Source of the DNA: Candidatus Woesearchaeota archaeon
GTDB taxonomy: Archaea; Nanobdellota; Nanobdellia; Woesearchaeales; UBA525
Length of the DNA: 64,000 bases
Assembly: GCA_027371725.1 (NCBI GenBank)
Contig: DAHXMN010000001.1
Location: forward strand, 400-64,399
Direction: 5' to 3'
Shown here: in pieces, positions 8,625-33,165 of the stretch
How positions within the stretch are numbered: position 1 is the first letter of the stretch
Layout of the letters: each line of letters starts with the position of its first letter
The notes under the pieces: generated by a model
The model's input: the letters and a program-made list of their open reading frames with translations, nothing else
The model's database searches: none
What the model was told of the DNA's origin: nothing
Translations under genes and position numbers: made by a program

Positions 8625-8654
8625 AAAAGCCCTCCGGTCCCTCCACCGCTCCGC

Positions 8655-8904: not shown

Positions 8905-8909
8905 GCCTC

Positions 8910-10415: not shown

Positions 10416-10562
10416 ATGGTCAAAACGAAGATGCTCGTCATCAGGATCACGGAGAAGCAAGAGCAAACGCTCCGGGAGATGATGCTTACGCTCGGTTTCA
10501 GAAAGAAATCGGAGTACATCCGCTCAGCACTCTTCAAAAACACCGGGGTGACGAAGAAATGA
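10416..10562 (+). CDS. small ribbon-helix-helix (CopG-like) protein, 48 aa
   Basis: MVKTKMLVIRITEKQEQTLREMMLTLGFRKKSEYIRSALFKN. Not in the ORF track (under 60 aa). ATGA overlap with the next ORF. Confidence 0.5.
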   Translation: MVKTKMLVIRITEKQEQTLREMMLTLGFRKKSEYIRSALFKNTGVTKK

Positions 10563-10753
10563 ACGAATTCGAACTCCTCAGGGGCGAACGCCGCAGCTTC
10601 TTCTGTCCGAACAAACTCTGGAAAGAGCTCCTCGCACAGACGGATGACTGCGTTAGCGTTAGCACCTTTATACGACAAGCGATAATTGAGAAGATGTCGA
10701 AGGAATCGCCTGAACGCGAAGAATATTTTCAGAGTCTGCTTACAAGTGATTGA
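10559..10753 (+). CDS. small putative DNA-binding (RHH-like) protein
   Basis: 64 aa ... STFIRQAIIEKM. Preferred over the antisense ORF 10391..10678. Confidence 0.45.
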   Translation: MNEFELLRGERRSFFCPNKLWKELLAQTDDCVSVSTFIRQAIIEKMSKESPEREEYFQSLLTSD

Positions 10754-10767
10754 GAATAAAACATTCT

Positions 10768-11808
10768 TTATCTTGTTTTAATCTCTCCAATCGTGACAAT
10801 TTCAGGATTTAGTTCTTTGATTGTCTCGGCGATGTCTTTGAGAGTGTTTTTGACAAGATCGCCAGTATTGTTCTTTGCAGTGACTTTATCCATTTCTTGT
10901 TCGAGAACTTTCTCGGATGCTGATTTTCCCACTATGCTCTTTATTTTTTCTAAATCTTTTTCACGGTCATCTAATATATCTGCGAATTTAAGCATCTTTG
11001 CCTGTAGTTTAATTATCTCCGACGGTGTTTTCTTTATTTCGTGAGCATAGTCCTTCGCATCTAGGTCGATTGTCTTCGCGTATAACCTGAATGCATCGGC
11101 CATCTCTTTATAATTTTCTACACCGACGGTGATTGACCCGCCGAAGTATGAAAGTTTCGCAACAATTGTCTTTTTCAGTTCATTCTCGAATGCTTCTTTC
11201 TCCTCGGTCCCTAAGGATGTTTTTTCGGAGAGGTTCTGAAGTGATATGCCGAGTAAAATCGGATTTTCTGTCGTGAAGGTCAACGTTTTCTGTCTTCCAT
11301 CAACAGCAATTCTCACCGAATCGCTGAACGGCTCTATGCTAAGGAGCTTTTTGTAGGAATAGTTATAGCTCTTGAATTGACCAGCATAGATAACTCTTTT
11401 TGAGGTTATATACAAGATTCCTGAGTCGATTTTGCGGAGTTCACCATGTGATTCAGCTTGACCGGAACCCATGTTGAACCACCAGCCCTTTGCAATTCTG
11501 ATACTGTGCCCAGTCCTGACATAATTTCTTATCGCGCGCTCTTCATAGAGGCTTGAAGGTTGGGCATACGTGATAATCTCATCTTTAGGGAGAATCAGCT
11601 TTGCTCGAGCATTCTTGACGTCTTCCTTCATTTCAATATACTTCTCGAATTGCATCACCGGCGATTCTTTCTTTTTTGAGTTGATTGCCCAGCTAACCAA
11701 GTAAATGATAAGACAGATGATGCCTATTGGCCATAAAACAATCAAAAGAATAATGATAAGTATTCTGAGCCAGATATTCAGCCCATCAAACCACGACTTG
11801 AAGGACAT
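10768..11808 (-). CDS. membrane-anchored hypothetical protein
   Basis: N-terminal TM (ILIIILLIVLWPIGIICLIIYLVSWAI) followed by a soluble domain. AT-rich codon usage like the rest of the element. Confidence 0.55.
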   Translation of the reverse strand: MSFKSWFDGLNIWLRILIIILLIVLWPIGIICLIIYLVSWAINSKKKESPVMQFEKYIEMKEDVKNARAKLILPKDEIITYAQPSSLYEERAIRNYVRTGHSIRIAKGWWFNMGSGQAESHGELRKIDSGILYITSKRVIYAGQFKSYNYSYKKLLSIEPFSDSVRIAVDGRQKTLTFTTENPILLGISLQNLSEKTSLGTEEKEAFENELKKTIVAKLSYFGGSITVGVENYKEMADAFRLYAKTIDLDAKDYAHEIKKTPSEIIKLQAKMLKFADILDDREKDLEKIKSIVGKSASEKVLEQEMDKVTAKNNTGDLVKNTLKDIAETIKELNPEIVTIGEIKTR

Positions 11809-11826
11809 GATTTTTGCCTCATCTTG

Positions 11827-12597
11827 TTATTTATAAAACATTTTCTTTTTTGTCATTTTCAGCATCTTTTTGCTCTGTTTTCTTATGGTGACCTCTATCA
11901 CGCCAGTCGTGTTTGCCACCTGTCTCTGTGTTCTCAATTCGCTGTTCTCCTTCGCTGCGAGGTAGAGGGCTGCCGCTACGATGGTCTCGGGGCGTTGTCC
12001 CCTACTCTTTTGCCGCTCTACAATCTCGGCGGCCCGGCTGATGGTCTCTGCTTTGAGTTCAAGGCGTGAGCCGAAGCGCTGGACGAGATCTACGGGCTTA
12101 ATCGGGCTCAAGCGCAGGCCGAGCCCCCTAGTGAGGAGTCTGTAGGCTCTGAGCATCTTCGTCTTGCTGACGCTGCTGTAGGCCGTAATCTCCAGCGGTG
12201 TCTTGGGGATGTCGTGGAGGAGACAGGCGGCGTAGACGCTCGCGTAGAGGAGGCTCTGGTTGTCCCGTCCCCGATTGAGGCCTTTCTCGGCTGCTTGGGT
12301 GAAGATGAGGAAGGACTCGGTGGTAATCCGGTCTGGGAGCTTGAGCTTGCCCGTCAGGAGGCTAATCTGTGCCTTGGCGGCCTGGAGGTTCTTCTGCTTC
12401 GTGCTGAAGAGCCAGGCGGTTTTGACAATCCTGCCATCGTATTGGAACGTTCCGGCTGTCGCTACAGCGGGCTGCGCAGGGCGGTTTATTTCGCCTTGGT
12501 GCTCGGTTGGGCTGTCTTCGGTGATGAGGCCGCAGGCTATGCAGACGACCTCGTATCCGGCTTCTTTGAGGGTTCCGCCGCATTCAGGGCATCTCAT
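11827..12597 (-). CDS. tfb: transcription factor B (TFIIB) homologue encoded on the element
   Basis: N-terminal Zn ribbon MRCPECGG...VVCIACG, two cyclin-like repeats, and C-terminal HTH RTQRQVANTTGVIEVTIRK as in TFB. Confidence 0.75.
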   Translation of the reverse strand: MRCPECGGTLKEAGYEVVCIACGLITEDSPTEHQGEINRPAQPAVATAGTFQYDGRIVKTAWLFSTKQKNLQAAKAQISLLTGKLKLPDRITTESFLIFTQAAEKGLNRGRDNQSLLYASVYAACLLHDIPKTPLEITAYSSVSKTKMLRAYRLLTRGLGLRLSPIKPVDLVQRFGSRLELKAETISRAAEIVERQKSRGQRPETIVAAALYLAAKENSELRTQRQVANTTGVIEVTIRKQSKKMLKMTKKKMFYK

Positions 12598-16306: not shown

Positions 16307-18331
16307 TTACATCATCGCTCCAATGTATTTTGCCGCTTGCATCATGCTCTGGGCCCCGTCGCTCATTCCGGACTTGGTCACGATGTGCTTGGCGAGCAGG
16401 AGGAATAGGAGGTCGATCATGAGGAAGCAGGTGATCATGACGACGATCTTGTACCCGGCAAAGAGGGGTAGGCTAATCATCTGGCTGCAGCCGAGGATGA
16501 TGACTGCGTCCAGGAACGTGACGAAGATGCACAGCCCCAGGAGATTCATGATGAGGTGGCCGTAGCTCCGTAGCGGTGGCATGAAGTAGCAGAACACCCC
16601 GATGGGTGCGAAGAGGACGCCGAACGCCACGATGAGGTAGCGCATGGCCAGGAAGAGCATCGTCACCAGCAAGACCAAGGCATACAGCCCGACCAGGAGG
16701 AGTTCCAAGCCGATGTTGCTGATGTTGTCCGCTGTCAGGAGGAAGAACTGCGGATTGACCAGGCTGAGAACTGCCTGGGTCATGAGGCCGCCGATATCGA
16801 CGATGAGTCCGTAGAGGTAGTAGCTGGCTTGGACGAGGACGATCATGATGACGGTGTTTTTGAGCCATTCCTTGGCCATTTCCCGCTTCAGGACGTTGTG
16901 GCCGCTGGTGAGGAACTGGTACCCGGCATAGAGGAACAGGAACCCGTAGAAGAGGCTCAGGCAGTAGACGATGATTACCCAGACGCCCTGGAAGAGGCTG
17001 ATGCTCGGGGAGGCCTCCAATAAGTCCTTTACGAGGCTCAGAAGCGGCTCCAGCGGGGCGTTGATGATGCTCAGGAGGAAGCTGTAGAGCGCCCCTGGGA
17101 GGCAACTGCCGAGGTTTGTGAGGCCACAATCCTCCGCCCGGACCATCGGCAAGGCCAAGAGGACGCCGAGGCCGATTCCGGGGAGCTTCCGCCAGTACTT
17201 ACGGGAAACCCGGTACGCGGCGACCAGGATGCCCGCGATGACGGCCATTTTGAGGATGAAGACCCAATCTACGGTGACGCTGGGCGGGGTGAACGCCGCG
17301 CTGGGAGGGGCTGAGAGGTTCTGGGCGCAGGGCTTGGTCTGGTTCGTGAAGAAGTCCTCAGCCCTGACCGTGCAGTTTGAGGCATTCGGCACGAAGAACG
17401 TCCCGTTGTACCAGCGGAGGTTCTGCGCCGTTTGGACCTCGAGCTTCTCCGCGTGAAGCTCCAGGAGGTAGAAGGGCTTCTTCGTGAAGTTCGCCGTGTA
17501 CACCCATTCCGTGGCGGAGTAGTTGCTTTGCCCCATGCTGAGCCAGACGCTCGTATTCGCATCATGGACCAGGAACGCCTTCGTAGTGCCCGAGTAGTTC
17601 GTGGCTAGGGTGAATGTGGCGTTCAGGGCGTGGCGGTCATACGTCGTGTTGAGGCTGTCGTTCAGGAGGAGGGTGTCCGTCGTGTAGTTTGTCTTGGTCT
17701 TTGGGCAGCGCCAGCAGTACCGGACGCAGACGCCGTTCCGGGTTCGACAGCAGTACTTCTGCCAGGTGTAGTAGTCGTTCTTGATTGTGGCACGGATGCT
17801 CAACTCCTCTCTGATATTCGCGTCAAAGATCAGGATGTTGATCGGGACGACTTTTCCGGTGCCCATCGTGATGTTGTTCGCCTTCGTTGTGAGGGTGCTC
17901 GTGTTCTCGGTGAGGTAGTGGAGTATCTTGCACGTTGCCCCATTGCTCTGCGAAGGATTAGTGTAATTTGCTGGCACCTTGATCCAGTAGCTCGCCTCGG
18001 AACGGACGGCCACCTTGGCCGGACAGTAGCGAGTCTTGTTGAGCAGGACGCTCGGCTGGATTGTCAAGAGGGCGACCCAGGCATCCATGATGACACCCTT
18101 CTGAATTTTAGTATAACCGAACGGCGCATTGTTGACGACGATGCCCTGATTGTAGGCGGCGATGGCTGCGTGGTCCGGGTGACTCGTGTTCGTGTAGATT
18201 AGGTTGGCGATGAGGTCTTCATTCACCGTCAAAGCGGCGAGGCAGTTCGTCTGGTTCTGGAAGTAGCTGCAGTTGAAGGCAGCGGTAGCTGGGACGAAAG
18301 CGAGAAATAAAAGGAGAAAAAGAGGTTTCAT
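16307..18331 (-). CDS. large polytopic membrane protein with a signal peptide and a heavily N-glycosylated ectodomain (VirB6/TrbL-like candidate)
   Basis: 674 aa. Signal MKPLFLLLFLAFVPATAA. About 25 N-x-S/T sequons in the first 350 aa. At least 6 C-terminal TM helices. Confidence 0.6.
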   Translation of the reverse strand: MKPLFLLLFLAFVPATAAFNCSYFQNQTNCLAALTVNEDLIANLIYTNTSHPDHAAIAAYNQGIVVNNAPFGYTKIQKGVIMDAWVALLTIQPSVLLNKTRYCPAKVAVRSEASYWIKVPANYTNPSQSNGATCKILHYLTENTSTLTTKANNITMGTGKVVPINILIFDANIREELSIRATIKNDYYTWQKYCCRTRNGVCVRYCWRCPKTKTNYTTDTLLLNDSLNTTYDRHALNATFTLATNYSGTTKAFLVHDANTSVWLSMGQSNYSATEWVYTANFTKKPFYLLELHAEKLEVQTAQNLRWYNGTFFVPNASNCTVRAEDFFTNQTKPCAQNLSAPPSAAFTPPSVTVDWVFILKMAVIAGILVAAYRVSRKYWRKLPGIGLGVLLALPMVRAEDCGLTNLGSCLPGALYSFLLSIINAPLEPLLSLVKDLLEASPSISLFQGVWVIIVYCLSLFYGFLFLYAGYQFLTSGHNVLKREMAKEWLKNTVIMIVLVQASYYLYGLIVDIGGLMTQAVLSLVNPQFFLLTADNISNIGLELLLVGLYALVLLVTMLFLAMRYLIVAFGVLFAPIGVFCYFMPPLRSYGHLIMNLLGLCIFVTFLDAVIILGCSQMISLPLFAGYKIVVMITCFLMIDLLFLLLAKHIVTKSGMSDGAQSMMQAAKYIGAMM

Positions 18332-18660
18332 CCGACCAGGTATTGCACGACGAGCGGTGCAACCCAGATGATGATGAGGCCCACCACGATGTACCCCGCC
18401 ATGGTCTTGGCGGACTCGCGTTTGGCCGTGTCGTCGCCGCTCATGATGAACGTGACACCCGCAAAGACGAGGAACAGCACGGCAAGGACCGTGGCCGCGT
18501 ACTTCACGAAGTTGTACACCTTCATCACAGGGCTCAATATCTGGTCGAACGTCGCTTGGTCCTGGGGCGAGATCGTCTGATTGAACTCGACCGCCATGAC
18601 GAGCGGCGTGATGCTCAGGAAGAGCATCACCAACAGCAAGGCAGTTTTCATTCTTGGCAC
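18328..18660 (-). CDS. pilin-like small membrane protein (VirB2/TrbC-like candidate)
   Basis: 110 aa with a signal peptide plus two hydrophobic helices. Overlaps the upstream gene (ATGA). Confidence 0.5.
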   Translation of the reverse strand: MPRMKTALLLVMLFLSITPLVMAVEFNQTISPQDQATFDQILSPVMKVYNFVKYAATVLAVLFLVFAGVTFIMSGDDTAKRESAKTMAGYIVVGLIIIWVAPLVVQYLVG

Positions 18661-18838
18661 CTCCGCGCTTCGAATGCCTCGAGACTACCGTACTTCCACT
18701 CGATGAAGGTGCGGCACGACTCGCACAGCTCCTCCTCGGGTGTGTCCTTCAGGCATAAGACGCAAATCATGCTAGAACAAGGCGCCTGAAAAGCCTAGAA
18801 AGGATGTCGGAGAACGTATTACATCGTTTGATGTTAGC

Positions 18839-20533
18839 TCATCTTGTGAGCTTAGCTATGAGATTCACAGAATATAATGCCAGAAGATGACGCAAGGGAA
18901 CGCCCCCTCGGGGAGGTTCTCCGCGATCAAACTGTATGTGATTGCCAAGGGGCAATATCACTGCTCCATATTTTTGTTCGGGGAAGTGTTTGTCGACTAG
19001 AGATTTGACCTTCGACAATGCTTCTCTCGGCGTGAAGTGTTGAGAATCTGGCTTAACCAAACAATATTGTTCCTGAAATTTCATCGCTGTAGGTATTCGT
19101 CCTGAGAATGTCCTCTCTACTTGCACCATAAATTCGTTCAGTTTTTCTTCATCCACATCCTTCAGGACTGCCTTGATTTGACTCTGAGTAGGAAGCGCTT
19201 TTTTCATACTGTCTTTTCCTGTTGCATGATGTATGCTCGCTTCCCATCTTATCTTCTTGTTCTGTTTATTCAGTGAGTTAGTGAGCTCGACTCTATAGTT
19301 CCCTTGCTTCAAGTCGGGTACAATCTCTGCAAATGTTGAGTAGATATCACGATTTCGTGATTTCTTAAGAGATGGCTGCTTTTCTCTGAGATTCGCAATT
19401 AGTTTCTCTTTCTCGGGCCGGTGTATAAATGCCTCTGAAGGTGTTCGTTTTTTATGCTCGATAAGTATTGCTCTGGCAAAAGCAGCCGACATCTTTGGGC
19501 ACACCGCATTTCCGACTAGCCGATACTTAGTCGATTCATTGCTTCCTTGAAAGAGATATGTGAGAGGAAACGACATTAAAGCGGCAACTTCTCGAATAGT
19601 TGGCGATCGATATATTTCTGGATGACCATTACGAAGAATCATTGATTCTCTCGACACTACCGATTTGGTCGCCATTACAGTCCTACTCGGTTTTGATTCG
19701 TCTTCTGGGAAGCTCATCCGACCATAGTATCTTGCTTGAAGCTTCTTGTTTCTTGCGTCTTCCCACTCGAAACGAGGTATCGTGGTGTCATAGAAATGAT
19801 CTGTAATCTGGATATTGGAGATAAGGATGCCGTAATTTGGATCTTTAATCTGCGACGCGGTTGAACGTAGGGCATCGAGCACATGTCCAAGAGTGACCCA
19901 GTCCTCTTGCGTCGGAGTCGTCGGGGTTGGTTTGATGAACTGACCACAAATGAATCGCTCTCTTCGTTGAGGAACTCCGAAGTGAACTGCGTTATGGACA
20001 TTCTCAAGAGATTTATCGATTCTCAAAGCAACGTCATTCTCGCTAAAATCAATTTTTAGGGCGCGAAGAGTCTTGTTGTCCAGCCCTAGCATCTTGAATG
20101 TGTACTCATCTTTGACATAATTGCGAGAATTTGGCACGTTCTCCATCAACCAATACTTCAATCGAGAGCCTTTCTTGTGCTTCTTAAGAGCGACAATCTG
20201 CAGATACTTCTCTATTAGTTGTATGCCAATCGTTTTGTTGGCGTTGCCTGCACGGTTTGATCCTGAAAATGCTACGCAAGGAGGACTGCCGACTATGACA
20301 TCAACATCGGGAATCATATCATGGGCGATGATTTGTTCAGGACTAAGTTCGAGTACGTCTGTGAGAAGTGTTTGCGCTCCCGGATGATTAAGCTTGAATG
20401 TATTTATGGCTGGTTTCCAATAATCCAGACCAAACTTCACTTCGAAGCCCATCTGTCTGAATCCCTCTGAGAAACCGCCCGCCCCGCAGAAGAAGTCGGC
20501 AACCGTCAGTTTATCTTCGGTCCTTTGCACCAT
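18839..20533 (-). CDS. DNA (cytosine-5)-methyltransferase with a roughly 200-aa C-terminal extension
   Basis: Motif I FCGAGGFSEGF, motif IV GSPPCVAFSGSN and motif VI LMENVPN. Confidence 0.85.
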   Translation of the reverse strand: MVQRTEDKLTVADFFCGAGGFSEGFRQMGFEVKFGLDYWKPAINTFKLNHPGAQTLLTDVLELSPEQIIAHDMIPDVDVIVGSPPCVAFSGSNRAGNANKTIGIQLIEKYLQIVALKKHKKGSRLKYWLMENVPNSRNYVKDEYTFKMLGLDNKTLRALKIDFSENDVALRIDKSLENVHNAVHFGVPQRRERFICGQFIKPTPTTPTQEDWVTLGHVLDALRSTASQIKDPNYGILISNIQITDHFYDTTIPRFEWEDARNKKLQARYYGRMSFPEDESKPSRTVMATKSVVSRESMILRNGHPEIYRSPTIREVAALMSFPLTYLFQGSNESTKYRLVGNAVCPKMSAAFARAILIEHKKRTPSEAFIHRPEKEKLIANLREKQPSLKKSRNRDIYSTFAEIVPDLKQGNYRVELTNSLNKQNKKIRWEASIHHATGKDSMKKALPTQSQIKAVLKDVDEEKLNEFMVQVERTFSGRIPTAMKFQEQYCLVKPDSQHFTPREALSKVKSLVDKHFPEQKYGAVILPLGNHIQFDRGEPPRGGVPLRHLLALYSVNLIAKLTR

Positions 20534-20651
20534 TCTGATCCACTAATTCTTAAACGATCTCCTAATCCCTTTATTTAAATGTTGTCACAGTCGATTCATT
20601 TTTAAAGATGCTGAGAATCAGAAGCCGCATCTGACGCAAGTGTTTGGACGC

Positions 20652-21563
20652 TTATTTCCAGTGCTTTTTGATATAGGCTGTTGCTTCTTTCGTGTTAAGT
20701 TGCTGAGTGGAATTGCCCGTACGTATGAAGAAGTGGGTGGTATCTTTGTTCTCGACATACACTGGTTCGGACGCTTTTTTGACTTGTACTGATGCGACTT
20801 TCTTCCCGTCATAATCTTCAAATGATGTCGAGATAAGCTGTGCATGCTCTTTACCAATATAGTTGCTGACGATTTCCCCTATTTTTAGCTGGAAACCATC
20901 CTCGTTCTGCTTTTTCAAGAGAGAGATGTCCTTTTCCAGTCCCAAGATATTCTTGTCATCATCTATCCCGATTATTAGTCTTCCACCGTCAGCATTCATG
21001 AACCCGGCGATGGTCTTCGCAATGGAGACAATCAAATCCTTGTTCGGTTTGTTTTGTTTATAGTCCCATTCTATAGACGATTTGAATTCGACTGTCTCAT
21101 CCTCGCGTAATGCTTCGAGGCCGGTTTTCTTCTCTCGAATCATTTCTCCTGCGAGTTTTGATGCTTCATTCATCTTTTGTTCCAGAAGAAGCATGAAATT
21201 CTCAGATGTTCTGTACTCCTCGATGAGTAGCTGTAACTCACTCAGGCCAGCTATGGAGTATTCCTCCGCAATCTTCTTGACCTCATTCATGTCCTTAAGG
21301 ATGAGCATATCGCCCGTCTCAGCGACCGCAATTGAGGTAATTAACCAGAGATCCGCGTCAGAAAAACTGTCTGTATTCAGCAAAGGATAGCGTTTGATTT
21401 CTTTTCGTTTCAGTCTCTTCACAAATGCAAGAGACATGCAAAGCATGAAAATGTGCTTTGCTTTCATATTCTGGAAGATGAATCCTTGCTCAAGGTCGTC
21501 GTATATCTTACGAGCGTCCCTGGTTATGTTCAGGTTCCTTCCAAAAAGTTCTCTTAGTTCCAA
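20652..21563 (-). CDS. AlbA_2 (Schlafen-like) domain protein with a DndE-like N-terminal region
   Basis: The C-terminal half (...ADGGRLIIGIDDDKN...FFIRTGNSTQ) is an AlbA_2 core. The N-terminal half (ITRDARKIYDDL...HIFMLCMSL) resembles, from memory, the DndE pattern (TGLxPNLLCRIGFCxSL). Overlaps the SMC-like gene. Confidence 0.5.
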   Translation of the reverse strand: MELRELFGRNLNITRDARKIYDDLEQGFIFQNMKAKHIFMLCMSLAFVKRLKRKEIKRYPLLNTDSFSDADLWLITSIAVAETGDMLILKDMNEVKKIAEEYSIAGLSELQLLIEEYRTSENFMLLLEQKMNEASKLAGEMIREKKTGLEALREDETVEFKSSIEWDYKQNKPNKDLIVSIAKTIAGFMNADGGRLIIGIDDDKNILGLEKDISLLKKQNEDGFQLKIGEIVSNYIGKEHAQLISTSFEDYDGKKVASVQVKKASEPVYVENKDTTHFFIRTGNSTQQLNTKEATAYIKKHWK

Positions 21564-23545
21564 CTCCGCACCTCAGTCACACCATGGCTCATCACGAAAC
21601 GAGATTCCTGAGCTATACGCTTAGAAAGCAAGTCTCTGATTGTGGCAGTATATTCCTGATCCTTCATCAGAAGGACAACCTGTGTTCCTTTGAGATAGTC
21701 TGGCAACTTCCGCGCCACATTCTCTCTTTGTTCATTATCTATGTTTGCTAGGGGCGTGTCGATGAATACTGGGAACTTGAATCCGGAGACCTCGCTCAAA
21801 GCAGCAATGAATGACAACAATAGGAGCTGTTTCGGACCACTTGCGAGATTGTGCATCCAGTTTGTTCCTTTGCCGTCGGTAAGTCTGAGGTCATAATCAT
21901 GATTGATTGTGAACTCAGTATATTTCTCTTTGTCCCAATGGAGTGTTTTGAAGTATTCCCATGTCTTCTCTTGCACTTGTTCTCTGACTTCCTGTAGAAT
22001 CTCTACCTCAATTTTATTCAGTGCATTTGATGCGCGATCAATAAACTCAGCGGTGACCTTCTTTCTTTCTCCGCCTTTCTTCTTCACACCTTCTTGATTG
22101 AGACTTTGTCGTAGTTGACTCAGTTGTCCAGTTCGTAGATTTATGGCGGCAGTCAATCTCGAGACGGAAGCTATTTGAGACTCTCTGTTTGTCATAAGAG
22201 ACTCGCGTTGATTTGTCTGTTGAATTATGTCGTCTTCTTTAGTGTCCTTAAGATTCTTTGATATTTCTTGAAGATCTTTATCGTGCTTTTTATTAAGTTC
22301 CACTAGTTTTTCGAGTTTCTTGTTCAGAGTGGCTATCTCGTTGAGTGATTGAGGGATTTCGCGCTCTAGAATATCGGTGATTCTGAATTTACCTTCTGAA
22401 AGCGTGGCCTTGAATTCATTGAAATTATTCTCTCTAATCTTTTCTTTTAAGAGAGTCACACATTCTTGGTCGTGAGTAGTGTTGAGCGTCCTCCCGCAGA
22501 CGCATTTCTTTTGTCGCAACAGTTCTTCAAGATATTTGTTGTCGATATTTGGCTGGAACTTATCCCTCTCTAATTCAGCATTTATTAGATTGATAAAGTT
22601 CTGCAACGCACCAGATGCGATGGCCAGAGGAGCGGATGATATGGCAATCGTTCTCAACTGTTTCTTGATTTGATCTATTTCTTGGTTATTGGAAGCAATC
22701 TTTTCACGGATATCGCGTTCTTGTCTCGCCCATTCTCGTATGAGTGGGATGTTATAGTCAGAGAGGAACTTCTCGATTCTGTCAATCTCCTCCTTTGCTT
22801 TGGCGATTTCTCCTTTTCGAGTTTCAATAGCTTCCGTATTTCTCGCTATATACTCCTCCGCCTCTTCAATCTCATGGTTCAATTTCGCCATTCCTGCATC
22901 GTATTCGTCGTCTTTATCGGAGGTCCATATCTGATCTCGGACTTTCTGGAGATGCTCTATCGCCAGCTTGACCTGTTTGATTTGAGAGGTTCTTTCGATT
23001 GCTTGGCGGATGTTCTCGTTGTTATTGAATGAGAAGTGCTTTTCGAGCTTCTCACCTTCAAACATGAAAAAGAGGTGGATTTCCCTCGGCAATATGCTGT
23101 TTATTACATTAGTAAAATTATACTCGGGAACGGGTCTACAGTCGTTCTTTTCCCATTCCATTATTGAGCCGGTCGGCTCTTTTAAGATGTGCATCTTGTT
23201 ATTGAGCTTCTGGTACATTGCATCCCGTTTAATCACATAAATGGGCAAATCCGTTTCATCGTCGTTCAAGGTGATTTCAACATAGACGCTATCAATCTCC
23301 TTCTCCTTCATATCGTGTTGTCTGGCGACAGTAAATGCGGGCAAAGTGTGGTCATGACCTGAACTGGTCTCCTCACCATACAAACACCAAGCAATAGCTG
23401 AGAGGAAAGTGGTCTTACCAACGTCAGATTTAGCTTCAATCACAGAAAACTTGTTTTTTGCCTCTTTCTTGAACGTTACAACTATTGGCTTCTCCGGATT
23501 GCTGAACGGACGGAAGTTCTTGAGTTTGATTTCAGAGATCCACAT
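21554..23545 (-). CDS. DndD/SbcC/SMC-like coiled-coil ATPase
   Basis: 663 aa. N-terminal Walker A KSDVGKTTFLSAIAWCLYGE, a long coiled-coil middle, and a C-terminal ABC-type signature/Walker B region ...FPVFIDTPLANID. Confidence 0.7.
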   Translation of the reverse strand: MWISEIKLKNFRPFSNPEKPIVVTFKKEAKNKFSVIEAKSDVGKTTFLSAIAWCLYGEETSSGHDHTLPAFTVARQHDMKEKEIDSVYVEITLNDDETDLPIYVIKRDAMYQKLNNKMHILKEPTGSIMEWEKNDCRPVPEYNFTNVINSILPREIHLFFMFEGEKLEKHFSFNNNENIRQAIERTSQIKQVKLAIEHLQKVRDQIWTSDKDDEYDAGMAKLNHEIEEAEEYIARNTEAIETRKGEIAKAKEEIDRIEKFLSDYNIPLIREWARQERDIREKIASNNQEIDQIKKQLRTIAISSAPLAIASGALQNFINLINAELERDKFQPNIDNKYLEELLRQKKCVCGRTLNTTHDQECVTLLKEKIRENNFNEFKATLSEGKFRITDILEREIPQSLNEIATLNKKLEKLVELNKKHDKDLQEISKNLKDTKEDDIIQQTNQRESLMTNRESQIASVSRLTAAINLRTGQLSQLRQSLNQEGVKKKGGERKKVTAEFIDRASNALNKIEVEILQEVREQVQEKTWEYFKTLHWDKEKYTEFTINHDYDLRLTDGKGTNWMHNLASGPKQLLLLSFIAALSEVSGFKFPVFIDTPLANIDNEQRENVARKLPDYLKGTQVVLLMKDQEYTATIRDLLSKRIAQESRFVMSHGVTEVRSWN

Positions 23546-23732
23546 CTTTGTGCTCCTTCTGGCTGTATCCGTCCGCCCACTGTTTGTAGGAGTCGGTGTA
23601 TCTTCCTTTGGCCGCCGAGAGGTTCTTTAATTCATTCTCAAGAACATCGAGCAGAAACGATTTCAAATGCTCGCTTTCGTCTAATTCGGAGATTTTCCTT
23701 GTGATTATCTTATTCAGTTCTGATCGTCTCAT
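23532..23732 (-). CDS. small helical protein (66 aa) embedded in the operon
   Basis: Its start overlaps the helicase stop (ATGA at 23729-23732) and its 3' end overlaps the SMC start. Confidence 0.45.
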   Translation of the reverse strand: MRRSELNKIITRKISELDESEHLKSFLLDVLENELKNLSAAKGRYTDSYKQWADGYSQKEHKDVDL

Positions 23733-25873
23733 TGTGGTACGCTCAACAGGGCTTGATATTTAGTCAGATTATTCTTTACGGTCAAGGGGTTCCTTGCTGA
23801 CTGCAGGAACTCGTCAACCCTCAATAACTCCCGCCTTAACGCTGAACGCTCTGACTCCGATATTTTTAAAGGTATTCTTTCCCAAGGGAAAACCAAGACG
23901 TCATGTATAATCGAGAACTCTTTTCCCGGCGAGCGTCTCAGTATTCTCCCTCTTCTTTGAATAAACTCTACCGGATTCCCGCTACTCGCCAAAATAATTG
24001 CTCTTTCAATTCCTGGGACGTCGATACCTTCATCTAGGACCTTCATAGCAATCACTGCTTGATATTTGTCCTCCTGGAACAACCTTATGATTTCTTGCCT
24101 ATATTCAAGGCTTTCTTCATGAGTTATCTGATGAGCCCTAATTTTCTTGTCGTGCAGTATCTCCTTGACCCGTTCTATCTGTTTATCGGAACAATAGATT
24201 AGTGTTCGTTTAATATCTGGTATTGAAGAAAGGATTTTCTCAAAAGCAGCCCATTTTGCCTCAGCATTAACGAGTATTCTTGACCGCTCAAGAATCATCA
24301 TGAATATTTTATCGTCGACTTTTCCCTTGTTGGCGTGTATTGCTCGTGCTATCCGAGTTGAAAGCGACTCATATTTTTCTCTTTCTTCATCAGTCAATAT
24401 AGCAATTTCCGCATAATATTCGTATTCGGTCAGAAACTCAGGTATGGCCTGTTTCATGCTGAATTCAAAACATATCCCTTCAAAGTAGTCGAGTAGTTCC
24501 TGTGTCCCTTCGGGGTCCATGTATATCTCTGGTGTGGCGCTCAGACCAAGACGACCGATAAACTCCGGAAGCATCCCTTTCCTTGTCTCAGGTGCCCACG
24601 CGTGATGTACTTCGTCGCAGACCAATAGCTTGGTCTCTTCAGTTTTATTCACGAAATCTATTAAATCCTTCGAACAGAATGAATCATATGTTGCTACAGC
24701 AAAAAGATTCTCGGCTCTTCCTAGACGAAGCTTCAGAATCCCCGTCTTCAAGTCGGCAGCCCACACGGATTTGTTCTGCATGACTGGAATTATGTTTTTG
24801 AAACCTTCCGCCTCTAGGTTTTCTATCCATTGGGAGACGAGTAGCTGTGTTGGTGCAACAATCACTACCAACGACTTAGGATATCTTTTCAGGAAGGCGT
24901 CTATGGCGCGTAGAGCAGTGAATGTCTTTCCCGTTCCAGTCGCCATCTTCAATATGCCCTTAAAATTCTTCGACCAGTTCCTGATGGCCTCTTCTTGGTA
25001 CTCCCTGAGCTCCCTTCTCGAAGGTTCTTTCTGCTCCCGTCTAAATGAGTATCTCCCTTTGTACTCGTCCTTGGCTCTCCTCAGACAGTATTCTGAGAGC
25101 GTGTTGAATTCTTCTTCGGTCTTCGGTGATCGCTGTATTAGTTGTTTTTTGAAAGCATCACTAATCGGATAAACGCGCATATTCCCTGTCAAGTCATTCC
25201 AGAGCTCTTCGAAGTCCTCAAGATCGTGTTTTAGGTGTCGCTCTTTGTCGGATTCCACCCACCCTAGGTAGACGTGGAATTTTTCGTGGTTAAATAACCA
25301 TCCAGATGCGGTCTCGTTATCTGACCCGAAAAACTCAATCATGTTTCCGGAGGAATCTTCAAGAATGCCATATTTCTGGTGTTCTATTCCTTTGTTGCCA
25401 CCAGGAACTGCTATGCGAATTTCCAGACGACCACTTCTTACCATCCATCCAAGCATCTTTAGATGATCTTTCTTTAATTCATCTTCGCTGCAATCAATTT
25501 CGGTGATGATGCTCTTTTCAGCTTCACTGATTGCTCTTGCTATTGTCTCCGCGTCGACTTCACTCAGCTTCACACTCGTAATCAGTTGCATACGACCGCC
25601 ATTCTTGATGAACTCAGCCATCCCTTTTGCTGCTACGGCCAGAGAGCTAGAAGAGAAGAACCCTGAGACGCGCTTGTAGGTTACTGCCCGGGACAAAGCA
25701 GGAATATAGAATGAGTCCAGAACGTCTTCTTTCGCAGAGTCATAGACTCCTTTGCTTTCCAAGCCTAAATCCCTGAGGCTCATGCTCGAGCTAATTGATT
25801 CGCTTTTAAAAAGGTATCTCGATAAATTCCAGTTTACGCACACGTTCAACAGCAAAATGGGCGTATTTTGCAT
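23729..25873 (-). CDS. fusion of a phospholipase-D (HKD) nuclease domain and an SF2 helicase (ResIII/DEAH-like)
   Basis: HKD motif HQKYGILED. Helicase motif I ATGTGKTF, motif II LLVCDEVHHAW, motif III SATP and motif VI QRRGRILRR. Confidence 0.75.
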   Translation of the reverse strand: MQNTPILLLNVCVNWNLSRYLFKSESISSSMSLRDLGLESKGVYDSAKEDVLDSFYIPALSRAVTYKRVSGFFSSSSLAVAAKGMAEFIKNGGRMQLITSVKLSEVDAETIARAISEAEKSIITEIDCSEDELKKDHLKMLGWMVRSGRLEIRIAVPGGNKGIEHQKYGILEDSSGNMIEFFGSDNETASGWLFNHEKFHVYLGWVESDKERHLKHDLEDFEELWNDLTGNMRVYPISDAFKKQLIQRSPKTEEEFNTLSEYCLRRAKDEYKGRYSFRREQKEPSRRELREYQEEAIRNWSKNFKGILKMATGTGKTFTALRAIDAFLKRYPKSLVVIVAPTQLLVSQWIENLEAEGFKNIIPVMQNKSVWAADLKTGILKLRLGRAENLFAVATYDSFCSKDLIDFVNKTEETKLLVCDEVHHAWAPETRKGMLPEFIGRLGLSATPEIYMDPEGTQELLDYFEGICFEFSMKQAIPEFLTEYEYYAEIAILTDEEREKYESLSTRIARAIHANKGKVDDKIFMMILERSRILVNAEAKWAAFEKILSSIPDIKRTLIYCSDKQIERVKEILHDKKIRAHQITHEESLEYRQEIIRLFQEDKYQAVIAMKVLDEGIDVPGIERAIILASSGNPVEFIQRRGRILRRSPGKEFSIIHDVLVFPWERIPLKISESERSALRRELLRVDEFLQSARNPLTVKNNLTKYQALLSVPQ

Positions 25874-26540
25874 CGAGTTCGCAACCGAGGAATTGTCTGC
25901 CTGTCTGGCGTGCCGCTACGGCTGTGCTGCCGACCCCCATGAATGGGTCTAAAACCACATCTCCGGGCTTGCTAGAGGCCTCTATGAGGCGTTTAAGCAC
26001 CGCCAGGGGTTTCTGAGTGGGGTGAACTGAGCCGCCTTCTGGGCTGCGGAGTCGTTCTGCCCCGGTCAGGATTGGGGTGATGAAGAGGTTCTTCATGGCC
26101 CCTTGGCTGGGGAAGTTGAAGGTAATCTTGTTGAGCTTGACCTTCTCGTTGACGGCGTAGACGATGTATTCGTTGGCGAAGACCCAGTTGGTCTTGCTCA
26201 GGCGGGGTGGCGGGTTGGTCTTGCTCCAAACGAGGAGGTTGCGGAAGAACCAGGCCTCCTGGAAGATGCGCATGTAGATGGGGATTTGTTCGGTGCTGCA
26301 GAACACGTAGATCTGCCCGGTCGGCTTCAGGACGCGCTTGAGCTCCTTCATGACCGGGACGGGGTCGAAGCCATAGTCCCAGTCGCCGAAGTCCTTCCGG
26401 ATATGCCGTCCATCGTAGACGAGGTTTTGTTTTCTGGAGATGTTGTAGGGTGGGTCGGTCACGACGAGATCGACGCTGTTGTCAGGCAGTTCTTTGAGAT
26501 ATTCGAGGCAATCCATGCAGGCGATGGTGTTCAGTTTCAT
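25806..26540 (-). CDS. beta-class DNA methyltransferase (N6-adenine or N4-cytosine; DPPY type)
   Basis: DLVVTDPPYNI near the N-terminus. Its 3' end overlaps the helicase start. Confidence 0.8.
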   Translation of the reverse strand: MKLNTIACMDCLEYLKELPDNSVDLVVTDPPYNISRKQNLVYDGRHIRKDFGDWDYGFDPVPVMKELKRVLKPTGQIYVFCSTEQIPIYMRIFQEAWFFRNLLVWSKTNPPPRLSKTNWVFANEYIVYAVNEKVKLNKITFNFPSQGAMKNLFITPILTGAERLRSPEGGSVHPTQKPLAVLKRLIEASSKPGDVVLDPFMGVGSTAVAARQTGRQFLGCELDAKYAHFAVERVRKLEFIEIPF

Positions 26541-27424: not shown

Positions 27425-27745
27425 ATGGGACACACGGTCAGCAGCCAACGACACGTCACCGACGTCCTCCTCGAAGAGTTCAAGGCCTATGGGAGCAGCT
27501 TGCGACAGGATGAGCGCGTCATGTATGAGCGTCTTGTCAAGCAGGCGTTGAAACACGTGGGGAGCGTCACGTACACGAGCAGCACCGAAGCATGGGCGTT
27601 CGTCCTCCTCAGCATGATGCTCGAACAAGAAAAACGGATTAGCGCCTTGGAGGGACAGAATGAAAGCGTGGTTCATGGACGCGTACCGACACCAGAGCAA
27701 CCTCATCCTCTGGTTCAAGACGCCGGACGAGAACATACGACTTGA
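27425..27745 (+). CDS. hypothetical helical protein (106 aa); may be frameshift-fused to the upstream ORF 27006..27551
   Basis: Plausible K/E-rich sequence. Overlaps the PolB start. Confidence 0.35.
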   Translation: MGHTVSSQRHVTDVLLEEFKAYGSSLRQDERVMYERLVKQALKHVGSVTYTSSTEAWAFVLLSMMLEQEKRISALEGQNESVVHGRVPTPEQPHPLVQDAGREHTT

Positions 27746-29831
27746 GCGACCACTCCGCACCACCATCTACCTCGAAGCAACCCAACAAGCAGAAGAATAC
27801 CTCACTCACCAGACAATCCCGTTTCGTCGTGTCCGGCGACAGAACTATCGCAGGGAATGGCAGGACGTCTTCGAGATTGTCGTCCCTCATCTGGCCATGT
27901 TCGAGCGCTTCGTCCGATGGATCGAAGAAGGTACGAAGCACCAGGTCGCCCTCTACAACGCAGACATCACCCCGGAACAACGCTTCCTTTACGAGCACGG
28001 CCTCAGCGCCGGAACAACCGTCCTCCTCGACGGCGAGGAGTTCCACGTTCTTGACTCCAACGAAGCGGCCCCTTTCACCGTCGCACGGCTCACCGTCAGA
28101 ACTGACAAGCCCGTGGCGGCGGCAGAAGATACGCCGATACGCGGAATAGAACTAAACGAGACCCGGTTCGACGGGGAAGAACACTCGGTTCTTGAACGGT
28201 TCGCGGCGGCGTTTGTTCGTCTTGATCCGGACATCATCATCCTCGAACACGGCTACGCAGTCCTACCACACCTTGTTCGCCGCCTAGCAGCCCACAAGCT
28301 CTCAGTCGCGTTTCACCGTTGGGACGACACGCCAATCACTTACAAGGGTGGCAGGACGTTCTTCACCTACGGCAGGGTCCGTTACCAAGACTACGCCCTC
28401 GTCCTCCACGGACGGTTCCTCATTGACACGATGACGACCGTGGGAAGCACGTGCTCGCCGGATGGCATCCTCGAACTCTGCCAGCTCAGCGGGGTCCGGT
28501 TTCCGCAGGTCTGCGCCCGGAGCTTCGGAGCAGCCTTCCAAGGCGCACTCGTCAAGCAACTCCTTGCCCACCACTTCCTCGTTCCGTTCAAAGAGAAGCC
28601 CATCGACGAGCCCTTGAGCTTCATCGACCTTGTCAAAGGCGATCGAGCAGGCCAGTACCTTGATCCGGTCCTTGGCTTCCATCAGAACGTGGCAGAAATC
28701 GATTTCTCCTCGATGTATCCGTGGCTCATGTTCAACTACAACATCAGCGCTGAAGCCCTCCAATCAAAAGAAGAACCCCTCGTCGATGTACCAGGGCTTC
28801 CGCTCACGGTCTCGCACCGGCATAAAGGACTCGTCCCGCTGGCGATTAAGCCGTTCTTGGAGCGGCGTATGGCGTACAAGCGCACCCCAACCCCTGTTCA
28901 CAAGGAGCGTGCAGCTGCGCTGAAATGGGTCCTCGTGAGCAGCAACGGCTACCTGCGTTTCCGCGAGTTCAAGCTCGGCCTCCACACGAGCCATATGGCG
29001 CTCTGCGCCTACGCCCGCGAAACACTCCTCGCCTCGATGCGGCTCGCCGAAGAACAAGGATTCCGAGTCCTGCACGGCATCGTCGACAGCCTCTACCTCA
29101 CCAAACCAGGCATGACTGAGGAAGACGTCCGACGCTTCGCCAAAGACCTCGAAATCCTGACGGGCATCCCGGTCAGCATGGACGGCATCTTCAAATGGGT
29201 CGTCTTCCTCCCCAGCATCAACGACGACGACCGGGCACTCCCGGCACGGTACTACGGCGTCTTCACGGATGGCGAGATCAAAGCGCGTGGCCTTGAAGTC
29301 CGACAACTCAGCAGCGCACGCGTCGTCCAAGAATTCCAACACGAAATCCTCCAAGCCTTGAGCACCTGCTCCACCGCCGAGGAGATCAGAGAGGCGGCGC
29401 CCTTGCTCTGTCGGTTGCTTCGGCGGTTGCTCGGACGACTCGACCACGTCCCCCCGGAGTGGCTGACAATAAAGGTCTGTCTGAGCAAGACCGAGTACAA
29501 GCACAACGTCCCGCAAAAAGCCGTCGTCGAAGCCTACGCGAAACGAGGAATCCCTATCCAGCCTGGCCAATTCGTTCGCTACCTCTACCAAGAATCAGGT
29601 CCAGTCATCCCCGAGGACTACACCGGACCACCCGACGCAGACCGCTACGAAGCCCTATTGACCCGCGCCCTCTTCATCGTCCTCCAGCCCTTCGGTTTCA
29701 GCCGCGAATGGATTAGGGACCACACCCAACAAAGCCGACAGACGAGAGTCCCCGAATATGGAGAGATATTCGATAATACATTAAAGCTGCACGACCTTCC
29801 TGGTGCCTCATGTGCGGACGCTTCACCCTGA
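27660..29831 (+). CDS. family-B DNA polymerase, compact and apparently exonuclease-deficient
   Basis: Motif A EIDFSSMYPWLM (DxxSxYP), motif B-like LVSSNGYLRF, motif C HGIVDSLYL (a YGDTDS variant) and KxRG as IKARG. No recognisable ExoI DxE. Confidence 0.65.
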   Translation: MKAWFMDAYRHQSNLILWFKTPDENIRLERPLRTTIYLEATQQAEEYLTHQTIPFRRVRRQNYRREWQDVFEIVVPHLAMFERFVRWIEEGTKHQVALYNADITPEQRFLYEHGLSAGTTVLLDGEEFHVLDSNEAAPFTVARLTVRTDKPVAAAEDTPIRGIELNETRFDGEEHSVLERFAAAFVRLDPDIIILEHGYAVLPHLVRRLAAHKLSVAFHRWDDTPITYKGGRTFFTYGRVRYQDYALVLHGRFLIDTMTTVGSTCSPDGILELCQLSGVRFPQVCARSFGAAFQGALVKQLLAHHFLVPFKEKPIDEPLSFIDLVKGDRAGQYLDPVLGFHQNVAEIDFSSMYPWLMFNYNISAEALQSKEEPLVDVPGLPLTVSHRHKGLVPLAIKPFLERRMAYKRTPTPVHKERAAALKWVLVSSNGYLRFREFKLGLHTSHMALCAYARETLLASMRLAEEQGFRVLHGIVDSLYLTKPGMTEEDVRRFAKDLEILTGIPVSMDGIFKWVVFLPSINDDDRALPARYYGVFTDGEIKARGLEVRQLSSARVVQEFQHEILQALSTCSTAEEIREAAPLLCRLLRRLLGRLDHVPPEWLTIKVCLSKTEYKHNVPQKAVVEAYAKRGIPIQPGQFVRYLYQESGPVIPEDYTGPPDADRYEALLTRALFIVLQPFGFSREWIRDHTQQSRQTRVPEYGEIFDNTLKLHDLPGASCADASP

Positions 29832-30469
29832 TAACGCCGATGAACGAGCTCGTCCAACGCTTCCGAGTAGAAGCACCCAGCAAAGAATGGAAAGCACGGT
29901 ACAACGCGGCACCCACGCAGGAACTCCTCATCATCCCCCAGGATTACCCTGAGAAGATCGTGGCGGCGCGATGGGGCCTCGTTCCGCATTGGGCGAAGGA
30001 CACGAGCATCGGCTACAAAATGATCAACGCCAAAGCAGAAACCCTCGCAGAAAAACCCTCCTACAAGCCCCTCCTCGGACAAAAACGGTGCCTCGTCCTC
30101 GCCGACGGGTTCTACGAATGGAAACACGTCGGCAAGACAAAAACCCCCTTCAGAATCACCAAGCCCGACGGCAAGGCATTCGCCTTTGCCGGTCTCTACG
30201 ACGACTGGAAGCACGACGGCGAAACCCTCCGCAGCTTCACCATCATCACCACCGAACCAAACCCAATCATGAAGCCGATTCACGACCGCATGCCAGCAAT
30301 CCTCCCCGCAGAAAAGGAGCAAGAATGGCTCACAGGCGAGTCAGCCTCCGCCCTCAAACTCCTCAAGCCATTTGCAGGCAAACTCGCCCTACAGCAAGTC
30401 TCGGAGAAAGTCAACATTCCCGCAAATGACGACCCATCCGTCCTCAAAGGACCGCAACTACTCCGATAG
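29810..30469 (+). CDS. SOS-response-associated peptidase (SRAP/YedK/HMCES family)
   Basis: N-terminal MCGRF (catalytic Cys2). About 220 aa with a family-like sequence throughout (…WGLVPHW…). Confidence 0.8.
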   Translation: MCGRFTLITPMNELVQRFRVEAPSKEWKARYNAAPTQELLIIPQDYPEKIVAARWGLVPHWAKDTSIGYKMINAKAETLAEKPSYKPLLGQKRCLVLADGFYEWKHVGKTKTPFRITKPDGKAFAFAGLYDDWKHDGETLRSFTIITTEPNPIMKPIHDRMPAILPAEKEQEWLTGESASALKLLKPFAGKLALQQVSEKVNIPANDDPSVLKGPQLLR

Positions 30470-30630: not shown

Positions 30631-30759
30631 CACTTTTGATGATTTCAAGGGGCTCTCTAAGATTTTCAGCCTGGATTCGATCAGAATAATCACTTCTTGG
30701 ATGGTCTGACAGCCATATTTGCGCAGAAGACGCTCTTTTTCCTGTTCGAGGAGATCCAT
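30556..30759 (-). CDS. paralogue of the integrase-downstream small ORF (spans attR)
   Basis: MDLLEQEKERLLRKYGCQTIQEVIILIESRL... is homologous to 8728..8904. Confidence 0.4.
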   Translation of the reverse strand: MDLLEQEKERLLRKYGCQTIQEVIILIESRLKILESPLKSSKVIIAPPGGEPFPVSRGLHQSSSVLV

Positions 30760-30868
30760 GCACTCGAAAGCCAACGTCCCGAGCCGGTTGTAGCCGTACC
30801 TCTCGAAGACGTGCTTGGGCATCGTGATTAAATTTATATAGGCCGTTAGATTTTATGTTCTTGGGGGG

Positions 30869-33019: not shown

Positions 33020-33044
33020 GCGAGATCATTTCGGTGCATAAGGA

Positions 33045-33165
33045 TGTTGTTGGGGATGCTGTATGGCTGGTCGGTCACGACGAGATCGACGCCGCTATTG
33101 GACAACTCCTTGAGATACTCTAGGCAATCCCTACAGGCGATGGTGTTCAGTTCCATGCCCTGCAA
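33045..33165 (-). pseudogene. 5' remnant of a beta-class MTase (DQPY instead of DPPY), truncated at the duplication boundary
   Basis: MELNTIACRDCLEYLKELSNSGVDLVVTDQPY is homologous to the N-terminus of 25806..26540. Homology stops at about 33057. Confidence 0.6.

Follow-up and report, generated by a model that had tools for sequence, protein, structure and literature searches.

The closest described relatives of the locus reported here are the PbeABCD systems (Xiong et al. 2019, PMC6459918), which Rakesh et al. 2024 (PMC10853773) equated with the CxC-ABC (ATP-binding cassette) ATPase system. The type Pbe system blocks viral replication without degrading viral DNA (PMC6459918). Among the PbeAC pairs surveyed, 320 of 553 have no dndCD within 10 kb, and for 155 of these 320 a methylase lies within the same distance (PMC6459918); CxC systems also occur with C5 and/or N4 cytosine methylases replacing the phosphorothioate genes (PMC10853773). 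The methylase-linked systems (Fig. 4A-iv of PMC10853773; "solitary PbeAC with MTase" in PMC6459918), which are known by comparative genomics, contain a CxC ATPase, a clade-2 DndE, a protein joining an HKD nuclease to a superfamily 2 (SF2) helicase, a small protein, and a cytosine-5 methylase without phosphorothioate genes. We found the same set of genes in a 64,000-nucleotide stretch of a Candidatus Woesearchaeota archaeon (positions 400 to 64,399 of contig DAHXMN010000001.1, assembly GCA_027371725.1; hereafter the window), where what is very probably a complete PbeABCD operon lies beside a C5 methylase gene and encodes a PbeD protein fused to a Schlafen/AlbA_2 domain. The published methylase-linked systems instead have a standalone PbeD/DndE and a separate "MTaX1" gene, and PbeD fusions to Schlafen/AlbA or HEPN go unmentioned in the main text describing them. 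The CxC clade and MTaX1 were reportedly both defined in the ABC ATPase paper of Krishnan et al. 2020.

A first-pass annotation of the window had flagged positions 20652-23545 as a DndD-like ATPase paired with an overlapping gene that combined DndE-like and AlbA_2 segments. Both genes exist as it described them, as minus-strand open reading frames (ORFs) at 21554-23545 (663 amino acids, aa) and 20652-21563 (303 aa, starting with TTG) that overlap by 10 nt. The flagged interval covers only half of the unit, since the two genes are pbeC and pbeD within a cassette at 18825-25877; the annotation had missed PbeA and PbeB upstream, the C5 methylase on the downstream side, and the AlbA_2 catalytic motif. 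The five cassette genes can each be identified, their catalytic motifs are intact, and the four pbe genes are joined in operon-like fashion, with start/stop overlaps of 4, 14, and 10 nt from pbeA to pbeD; 118 nt separate the pbeD fusion gene from the C5 methylase gene. The features of the cassette are listed below, where GC3 denotes GC content at third codon positions and L015 is a related element (GCA_964603995.1).

18825..25877, no strand assigned: low-GC cargo cassette (C5 methylase, PbeD::Slfn, PbeC, PbeB, and PbeA), delimited by GC, GC3, and synteny with L015
23729..25783, minus strand: pbeA, HKD (phospholipase-D type) nuclease and SF2 helicase, 684 aa counted from M31, within a longest ORF that begins at 25873
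25316..25381, minus strand: PbeA HKD catalytic motif (H165-N186, 714-aa numbering), from a motif search and alignment with three PbeA homologues
23532..23732, minus strand: pbeB, 66-aa small protein, from position, size, and close homologues
21554..23545, minus strand: pbeC, coiled-coil ABC ATPase of the CxC clade, sister to DndD, from PADLOC, NCBIfam, and motifs
22496..22504, minus strand: PbeC CxC (C348-V-C350) at the coiled-coil apex, a proposed Zn hook, from alignment
21114..21563, minus strand: PbeD domain (aa 1-150 of the 303-aa fusion), two predicted ribbon-helix-helix (RHH) repeats and a long C-terminal helix, from family matches and a model
20652..21113, minus strand: Schlafen/AlbA_2 domain (aa 151-303 of the fusion), from PF04326, a model, and Foldseek
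21081..21104, minus strand: putative Schlafen Ex4ExK catalytic motif (E154, E159, K161), from a motif search and alignments
18839..20533, minus strand: C5 cytosine DNA methyltransferase (564 aa, including a C-terminal extension of ~200 aa without a Pfam or PDB match), from PF00145 and motifs

The cassette shares the four-gene order pbeA, pbeB, pbeC, pbeD with the haloarchaeal DndCDEA-PbeABCD locus (PMC6459918), and the HKD and KCxCGR motifs with the Halorubrum trapanicum reference locus (L009). It differs in having a C5 methylase where the haloarchaeal locus has adjacent dndCDEA, and in a PbeD that is twice the usual length through the fused Schlafen domain. The proteins themselves are distant from their haloarchaeal counterparts, with PbeA 29% identical and PbeC aligning only over its C-terminal head.

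The assignment of PbeA is supported by the PADLOC PbeA model (E 2.9e-218) and by TIGR04095 (2.1e-115), with domain matches to ResIII, Helicase_C and, weakly, PLDc_2. In the 714-aa numbering, its motifs are HQKYGILED...GSDN (165-186), GTGKT (313-317), DEVH (420-423), and QRRGR (639-643). The HKD motif is kept in three aligned homologues, including the H. trapanicum reference, helicase motifs I, II, and VI are likewise retained, and the homologues align from M31. PbeB matched no hidden Markov model (HMM) in Pfam, NCBIfam, or PADLOC, so its assignment rests on position, size, and close homologues: the ORF is 58% and 48% identical to the same-position small ORFs of two related loci, L004 and L008, respectively, and its product has the same 66-aa length as the published PbeB (PMC6459918), a protein described as small and fast-evolving.

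The 663-aa ATPase matched the PADLOC PbeC model at 2.2e-150 (500 bits) versus 1.2e-47 for PADLOC DndD, and its score against the NCBIfam DndD model TIGR03185 was 153.9 bits, under the curated cut-off of 245.85. The string GKTTFLSAIAWCLYGE, which the first-pass annotation had read as the Walker A region, is present at aa 43-58, with Walker A itself at A38-T45. The CxC-containing coiled-coil middle and C-terminal signature that it had noticed were likewise found, as C-V-C 348-350 and the ABC signature LASGPKQ 567-573, and are followed by Walker B, FPVFID 591-596. The CxC lies within KCVCGR (347-352), a KCxCGR motif that is kept in five of five aligned PbeC proteins and absent from both aligned DndD proteins; at the coiled-coil apex it has been read as a Zn hook (PMC10853773). 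The label "DndD-like" therefore holds at the level of the superfamily and fails as an identity. DndD itself was rejected as a candidate on three grounds: the score below the TIGR03185 cut-off, the CxC motif, and no dndC in the window.

The N-terminal half of the 303-aa protein belongs to the PbeD family. It is encoded directly after pbeC, it has a weak precomputed match to PF27807 (DNA_S_mod_dnd_assoc_4), it matches TIGR04062 "dnd_assoc_4" (DNA phosphorothioation-associated protein 4) at E 3e-7 with 30.7 bits (below the cut-off of 74), and it shares 58% identity with "dnd system-associated protein 4", a standalone protein of 140 aa. In PADLOC, the full fusion gave only a chance-level REase_I match (E 0.013). 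The NCBI/ENA gene call of the fusion is 271 aa long from M33 and loses the first RHH strand and helix; we favor the 303-aa TTG-initiated form, which is supported by conservation of the N-terminus in homologues and by the structural model.

The first-pass annotation had likened this half to DndE on the strength of a residue pattern, ITRDARKIYDDL and HIFMLCMSL, both of which are indeed present in the protein. At the sequence level, the likeness did not hold. Pfam DndE (PF08870) gave no match to the 303-aa protein at E<=0.1 and none among 60 PbeD family relatives at E<=1, and the NCBIfam and PADLOC DndE models did not match the fusion's N-terminal domain. Alignment of the PbeD family profile with a 28-sequence DndE profile by hhalign returned a probability of 0.5%, and a 60-sequence PbeD profile found no DndE among PDB sequences at E<=10. 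On the other hand, the predicted fold supports the comparison. The AlphaFold (AF2) model of aa 1-150 (predicted local distance difference test, pLDDT, 92.4; predicted template modeling score, pTM, 0.83) consists of two strand-helix-helix units followed by a long helix, and its top 12 Foldseek matches across the whole PDB were all DndE structures (4lrv, 5wtu, 7x4e). These matches had template modeling (TM) scores of 0.60-0.73 when normalized to DndE, probabilities of 0.63-0.97, weak E values of 0.26-0.97, and ~10% identity. TraY, a tandem-RHH protein, follows the 12 DndE structures in the list. Together, these findings suggest a domain with a predicted DndE-like fold that is nevertheless a member of the PbeD family; since the sequence-level tests were negative, we do not file it under Pfam DndE and treat the DndE link as one of fold only. 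The fold result agrees with the published description of PbeD as a divergent "clade-2 DndE" (PMC10853773). The DndD/DndE machinery resembles the flagged pair in consisting of a coiled-coil ABC ATPase and an overlapping downstream double-RHH gene, with DndE structures that superpose on our N-domain model, whereas the window ATPase has a CxC hook, its partner has no detectable DndE sequence similarity, and neither a DndC nor a DndA partner accompanies them in the window.

The AlbA_2 domain of the first-pass annotation was borne out in full. SLFN_AlbA_2 (PF04326) matched aa 154-290 at E 3.8e-21 (76.3 bits versus a cut-off of 25.3) over profile positions 1-118 of 118, and the domain was modeled at a pLDDT of 96-98. 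Foldseek assigned a probability of 1.0 to matches with the AlbA_2 structure 3lmm, the SAMD9 tRNase domain (9o0d), SLFN13 (5yd0), and SLFN11 (7zel), as well as SLFN5, SLFN12, and SLFN14. The residues E154-x4-E159-F-K161 form an Ex4ExK motif that is invariant in nine of nine aligned PbeD::Slfn proteins and kept in at least 90% of a 60-sequence alignment. Ex4(E/D)xK defines the active prokaryotic Schlafen (pSlfn) nucleases, which in one tested bacterial system cut tRNA anticodon arms and cause growth arrest, and which are usually fused to sensor modules (PMC13056530). Going by its motif, the Schlafen domain of this PbeD may be an active RNase output, a prediction that we consider evenly poised.

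A second Schlafen gene is present in the window. An AlbA_2 ORF of ~130 aa begins at M127 of the plus-strand ORF at 405-1175, in low-GC sequence, and starts at the end of a 101-nt tRNA (683-783, plus strand) that was detected by Rfam and missed by ARAGORN, probably because it contains an intron. The 405-1175 ORF has Ex4ExK (E152, E157, K159), and it may be truncated, since the Pfam profile was covered only to position 97 of 118.

The fusion of PbeD to a C-terminal domain is recurrent. A HMMER search with the PbeD N-domain, exhaustive over 1.84 billion cluster representatives, recovered 137 PbeD clusters, 127 of them 69-178 aa long and 10 of them 267-332 aa long. Six of the 10 long clusters, the window protein included, carry a Schlafen domain. 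The other four (P0233, P0148, P0212, and P0237; loci L012 and L013) have mutually homologous C-terminal domains with Rx4H in the same position as the Schlafen domain, and one of these reaches Pfam HEPN_Swt1. In total, ~7% of PbeD clusters bear a C-terminal RNase domain, either Schlafen or HEPN, apparently through several acquisitions. The window protein and P0003 are mutual best N-domain matches; outside this pair, each Schlafen fusion lineage has standalone PbeDs as its closest N-domain relatives. In addition, the window Schlafen domain is 50-55% identical to Schlafens on unrelated partners versus 31-48% identical to those of other PbeD fusions. Both patterns point to repeated independent fusion, not one ancestral event. 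A scan of species-representative genomes with the single fusion protein returned only an unrelated AlbA_2 gene, and a metagenome scan with the PbeC alignment added one locus.

The genomic contexts of the fusions vary, yet they are genuine Pbe operons. The fusion P0005 lies directly beside dndBCDE, and the HEPN fusion P0148 lies beside dndA-dndE in the canonical dnd-pbe arrangement, while the window fusion and probably that of L004 are accompanied by a C5 methylase. We found no mention of Schlafen together with DndE or Pbe in the literature searched; a PbeD fusion may be among the unannotated architectures of the pSlfn survey. In Dnd neighborhoods, Rakesh et al. 2024 (PMC10853773) reported only standalone HEPN/PIN genes, as possible suicide effectors. 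What is new here is therefore the recurrent PbeD-RNase fusion, for which we found no literature description, whereas Pbe systems without dnd genes, methylase-linked ones included, had already been published.

A further variation was seen at positions 4323-10954 of the Actinomycetota metagenome-assembled genome contig JAXLTF010000016.1 (P0049), where a 456-aa helicase without HKD is found with a 491-aa MutH-domain protein upstream, which may represent a swap of nucleases. The PbeD of this locus is likewise fused to Schlafen, and neither a methylase nor dnd genes are found in the vicinity.

The claim that the window lacks DndA and DndC stood up to every search. None of DndA, DndB, DndC, or DndE was found among the Pfam-labeled gene calls at ~8.6-64 kb of the window or in a Pfam scan of the ten largest ORFs at 1-11.8 kb, and tblastn of the window with these proteins from two reference clusters gave nothing better than E 0.14. 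Of the reference Dnd proteins, only DndD matched, on the 663-aa ORF. There is no gene resembling a 3'-phosphoadenosine 5'-phosphosulfate (PAPS) reductase in the window, and the dndCDEA adjacency of the type Pbe system is absent from its 64 kb. The first-pass annotation had treated this lack as the anomaly of a stray DndD/DndE pair. That interpretation fell away, because the genes belong to a complete PbeABCD operon and because published surveys show Pbe/CxC systems without phosphorothioate genes.

Instead, the cassette carries a C5 methylase. PF00145 matched it over aa 10-356 (E 2.8e-38), with the motifs FxGxG, PC, ENV, QRRER, and GN present; its ~200-aa C-terminal extension had no Pfam or PDB match. 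The closest relative of the cassette, L008, has the order Vsr, C5 methylase, PbeA, PbeB, PbeC, and standalone PbeD. Over its full length, the window methylase shares 50% identity with the one beside pbeA in L008, in step with the 48-58% identity of the Pbe proteins to their L008 counterparts. In L004, a fragment beside a fusion gene that is 65% identical to ours matches the C-terminal extension of the C5 methylase. No dnd genes were found in the flanks examined of either L008 or L004. These observations make the C5 methylase the likely cognate modification gene of the cassette. A further enzyme of this type, a 558-aa C5 methylase that is 45% identical to the one in the window and has the same C-terminal extension, is one of the defense genes that together occupy 642-5943 of L015 (contig CAZRXH010000009.1), a sister conjugative element.

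The boundaries of the cassette are marked by composition and by synteny. Its GC content is ~43% versus ~58% in the flanks, and the GC3 of its five genes is 0.44-0.57 (0.44 for the C5 methylase) versus 0.70-0.85 in backbone genes. The related element L015 has 87-90% nucleotide identity to the window at 16354-18824, which comprises a type IV secretion system pilin gene and a membrane protein gene, and at 25878-26516, which lies in the N6/N4 methylase gene listed here:

25806..26540, minus strand: beta-class N6/N4 DNA methyltransferase (DPPY), an element backbone gene abutting the cassette, from PF01555, GC3, and L015

Between the same anchors, L015 holds a MutH-domain nuclease, a C5 methylase, Vsr, HEPN_RiboL-PSP, and GmrSD_N. 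Since other genes occupy this interval in L015, we define the window cassette as 18825-25877 and regard it as cargo in a defense hotspot. The hotspot lies between the backbone methylase and the pilin gene of an integrated archaeal conjugative element, whose backbone includes an integrase (8910-10253) beside tRNA-Gln, transcription factor B (TFB), a VirB4/TraC homologue, the pilin gene, and perhaps a family B DNA polymerase (PolB).

The N6/N4 methylase (PF01555, E 2.8e-44; DPPY at 29-32 ahead of FxGxG at 200-204) was also considered as a part of the Pbe system. It has a backbone-like GC3 of 0.73 and is 90% identical to its L015 orthologue, with the identity ending at 25878, and this codon composition and synteny rule it out.

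The account that we favor, and that we think moderately probable as a whole, is that a PbeABCD operon with a dedicated C5 methylase was horizontally acquired as a 7-kb cassette and works as follows. The C5 methylase would mark host DNA with 5-methylcytosine, replacing the phosphorothioate mark of dndCDEA-pbeABCD systems; for 5-methylcytosine as the self-mark, we see about an even chance. A PbeC dimer, joined at the CxC hook and with PbeD bound, would load onto DNA, where the double-RHH domain of PbeD would read target sites. On unmarked (foreign) DNA, ATP-driven engagement would recruit or license PbeA, with its HKD nuclease and SF2 translocase. The same event would activate the tethered Schlafen domain, probably by bringing at least two copies together, and the Schlafen would then cut tRNA or other RNA and arrest translation as a second or backup output. 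PbeB is probably a small regulator. More tentatively, the repeated RNase fusions may mean that PbeC-PbeD directly controls an RNA-cleaving output, that Pbe defense is partly translation arrest or abortive infection triggered from DNA, and that this cassette is a 5-methylcytosine-keyed version of it, a generalization in which our confidence is low.

Several points weigh against this account. The switching-on of the Schlafen domain by PbeC/PbeD is purely our inference. The only tested Pbe system is phosphorothioate-dependent and showed no degradation of viral DNA (PMC6459918). Adjacency of a methylase is no proof of functional coupling; at another locus (L014), the C5 methylase in the vicinity is the partner of a BglII-like restriction enzyme. 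Fusions also occur outside methylase-type systems, as one homologue adjoins dndBCDE, and our view spans 64 kb of one contig, with dnd genes possible elsewhere in the genome. Lastly, the AlbA_2 domain could be a sensor and not a nuclease, since the AlbA_2 fold also binds DNA, as in the SAMD9 domain crystallized with DNA (7ksp).

Developed in full, this last point makes the AlbA_2 domain an additional module for binding or sensing nucleic acid, which would assist PbeD in recognizing DNA, modified DNA, or viral nucleic acid, leaving PbeA as the sole effector. Such a role would fit the SAMD9 structure, the original description of AlbA_2 domains as DNA-binding, and the source annotations of many AlbA_2 proteins, which label them as binding DNA or as helix-turn-helix (HTH) proteins. 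However, the Ex4ExK triad is invariant in all aligned fusions, and other PbeDs have in the same place a HEPN domain with an intact Rx4H, an RNase fold without a DNA-sensing role. Moreover, the prokaryotic Schlafen domains tested so far are tRNases (PMC13056530). We therefore consider a purely sensory domain unlikely.

The cassette could also be an ordinary phosphorothioate-dependent Pbe module whose self-mark comes from dndCDEA (or iscS-dndBCDE) genes at another genomic location, with the C5 methylase an unrelated orphan or a restriction-modification remnant. The phosphorothioate requirement of the sole experimentally studied Pbe system (PMC6459918), the dnd genes that adjoin the P0005 (Schlafen) and P0148 (HEPN) fusions, and the restriction of our inspection to one contig of the genome all speak for it. 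What makes it quite improbable is that the cassette forms a compact mobile unit and brings its own methylase, which matches it in composition, that L008 and L004 share the methylase family while having no dnd genes in the flanks examined, and that the absence of dnd genes from the 64 kb is in line with the majority of published PbeAC pairs described above.

Foreign origin raises the further question of whether the cassette is decaying or silent cargo without current function, given DNA of 43% GC in an element of ~58% GC and an unadapted codon usage. We think this very improbable, as all five ORFs are full length relative to homologues of 48-65% identity, every catalytic motif checked is intact, and identical copies are present in independent ENA and Logan assemblies and in the longer NCBI contig. 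Finally, a minimal DndD/DndE-type pair that adds phosphorothioate, or some other modification of the backbone, in the absence of DndA/DndC, perhaps via housekeeping sulfur-transfer enzymes, would draw on the ABC ATPase and double-RHH core common to the Dnd modification machinery (PMC10853773) and on the DndE-like fold of the N-domain, but we dismiss it as extremely improbable, as the ATPase is in the CxC/PbeC clade and not DndD, the pair sits in a pbeA-B-C-D operon whose characterized members act in restriction and not modification (PMC6459918), and the modification enzyme of the cassette is a DNA methylase, with no PAPS-reductase-like gene in the window.

Compared with other Schlafen-based defenses, the PbeABCD-methylase cassette proposed here has both familiar and distinct features. 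Like pSlfn proteins (PMC13056530) and the CRISPR-associated Schlafen (PMC13462974), it pairs an Ex4(E/D)xK Schlafen domain with a variable fusion partner in a defense context. The partners of pSlfn are single-chain sensors (histidine kinase, HTH, immunoglobulin-like, and others), whereas the partner in the window is a subunit of what would be a DNA-scanning ABC ATPase complex, and Dnd and Pbe go unmentioned in the accessible part of the pSlfn paper (PMC13056530). By analogy only, the cassette also recalls PARIS, which is cited as a tRNase defense (PMC13056530) and in which an ABC ATPase assembly (AriA) holds a tRNA-cleaving Toprim effector (AriB) that is released on infection sensing; AriA is listed with PbeC among the defense ABC ATPases in the literature. 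The Toprim effector and the window Schlafen have no sequence relationship, and PARIS senses a phage anti-restriction protein and has neither a methylase nor an HKD-helicase, unlike the cassette.

The antiviral mode of PbeABCD has been read in two ways: the only experimental study saw no degradation of viral DNA, and on comparative-genomic grounds DNA cleavage by the HKD nuclease has been argued to be necessary. A natural variant in which a tRNase-type effector is hard-wired to the DNA-reading subunit, as predicted here, would offer a direct handle for separating the DNA-level and RNA-level outputs. The cassette, being compact, also lends itself to asking whether 5-methylcytosine can stand in for phosphorothioate as a Pbe self-mark, and it illustrates a defense-cargo hotspot in an archaeal conjugative element. 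Should the Schlafen domain prove a passive add-on, the finding would amount to one more PbeABCD locus.

We also noted several features of the element that carries the cassette. An exact 19-bp direct repeat, TGTTCGAGGAGATCCATGC, occurs at 8888-8906, beyond the integrase and tRNA-Gln, and at 30743-30761, near the SRAP/PolB end. The repeats are joined on one side only by ~65 bp of ~70% similarity, and each copy coincides with the start of a small minus-strand ORF, the two ORFs being paralogous (MDLLEQEK...). The repeats may be attachment (att) sites bounding an element of ~22 kb or just paralogous gene starts. At 33020-33160 on the minus strand, the opening ~110 nt of the N6/N4 methylase gene recur in degenerate form, with DQPY for DPPY, perhaps left behind by an earlier or tandem element. 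Low GC (~40%) also marks a second patch, at 10600-11800, which contains a 346-aa ORF (10768-11808, minus strand) without a Pfam match. This ORF lies where nucleotide identity to L015 lapses (10735-11868), and L015 has AAA and HSP70-like genes between TFB and the integrase; the patch may be a second cargo site of the element. Just past the backbone methylase, at 27660-30469 on the plus strand, the family B DNA polymerase and SRAP-domain genes are candidate members of the element.

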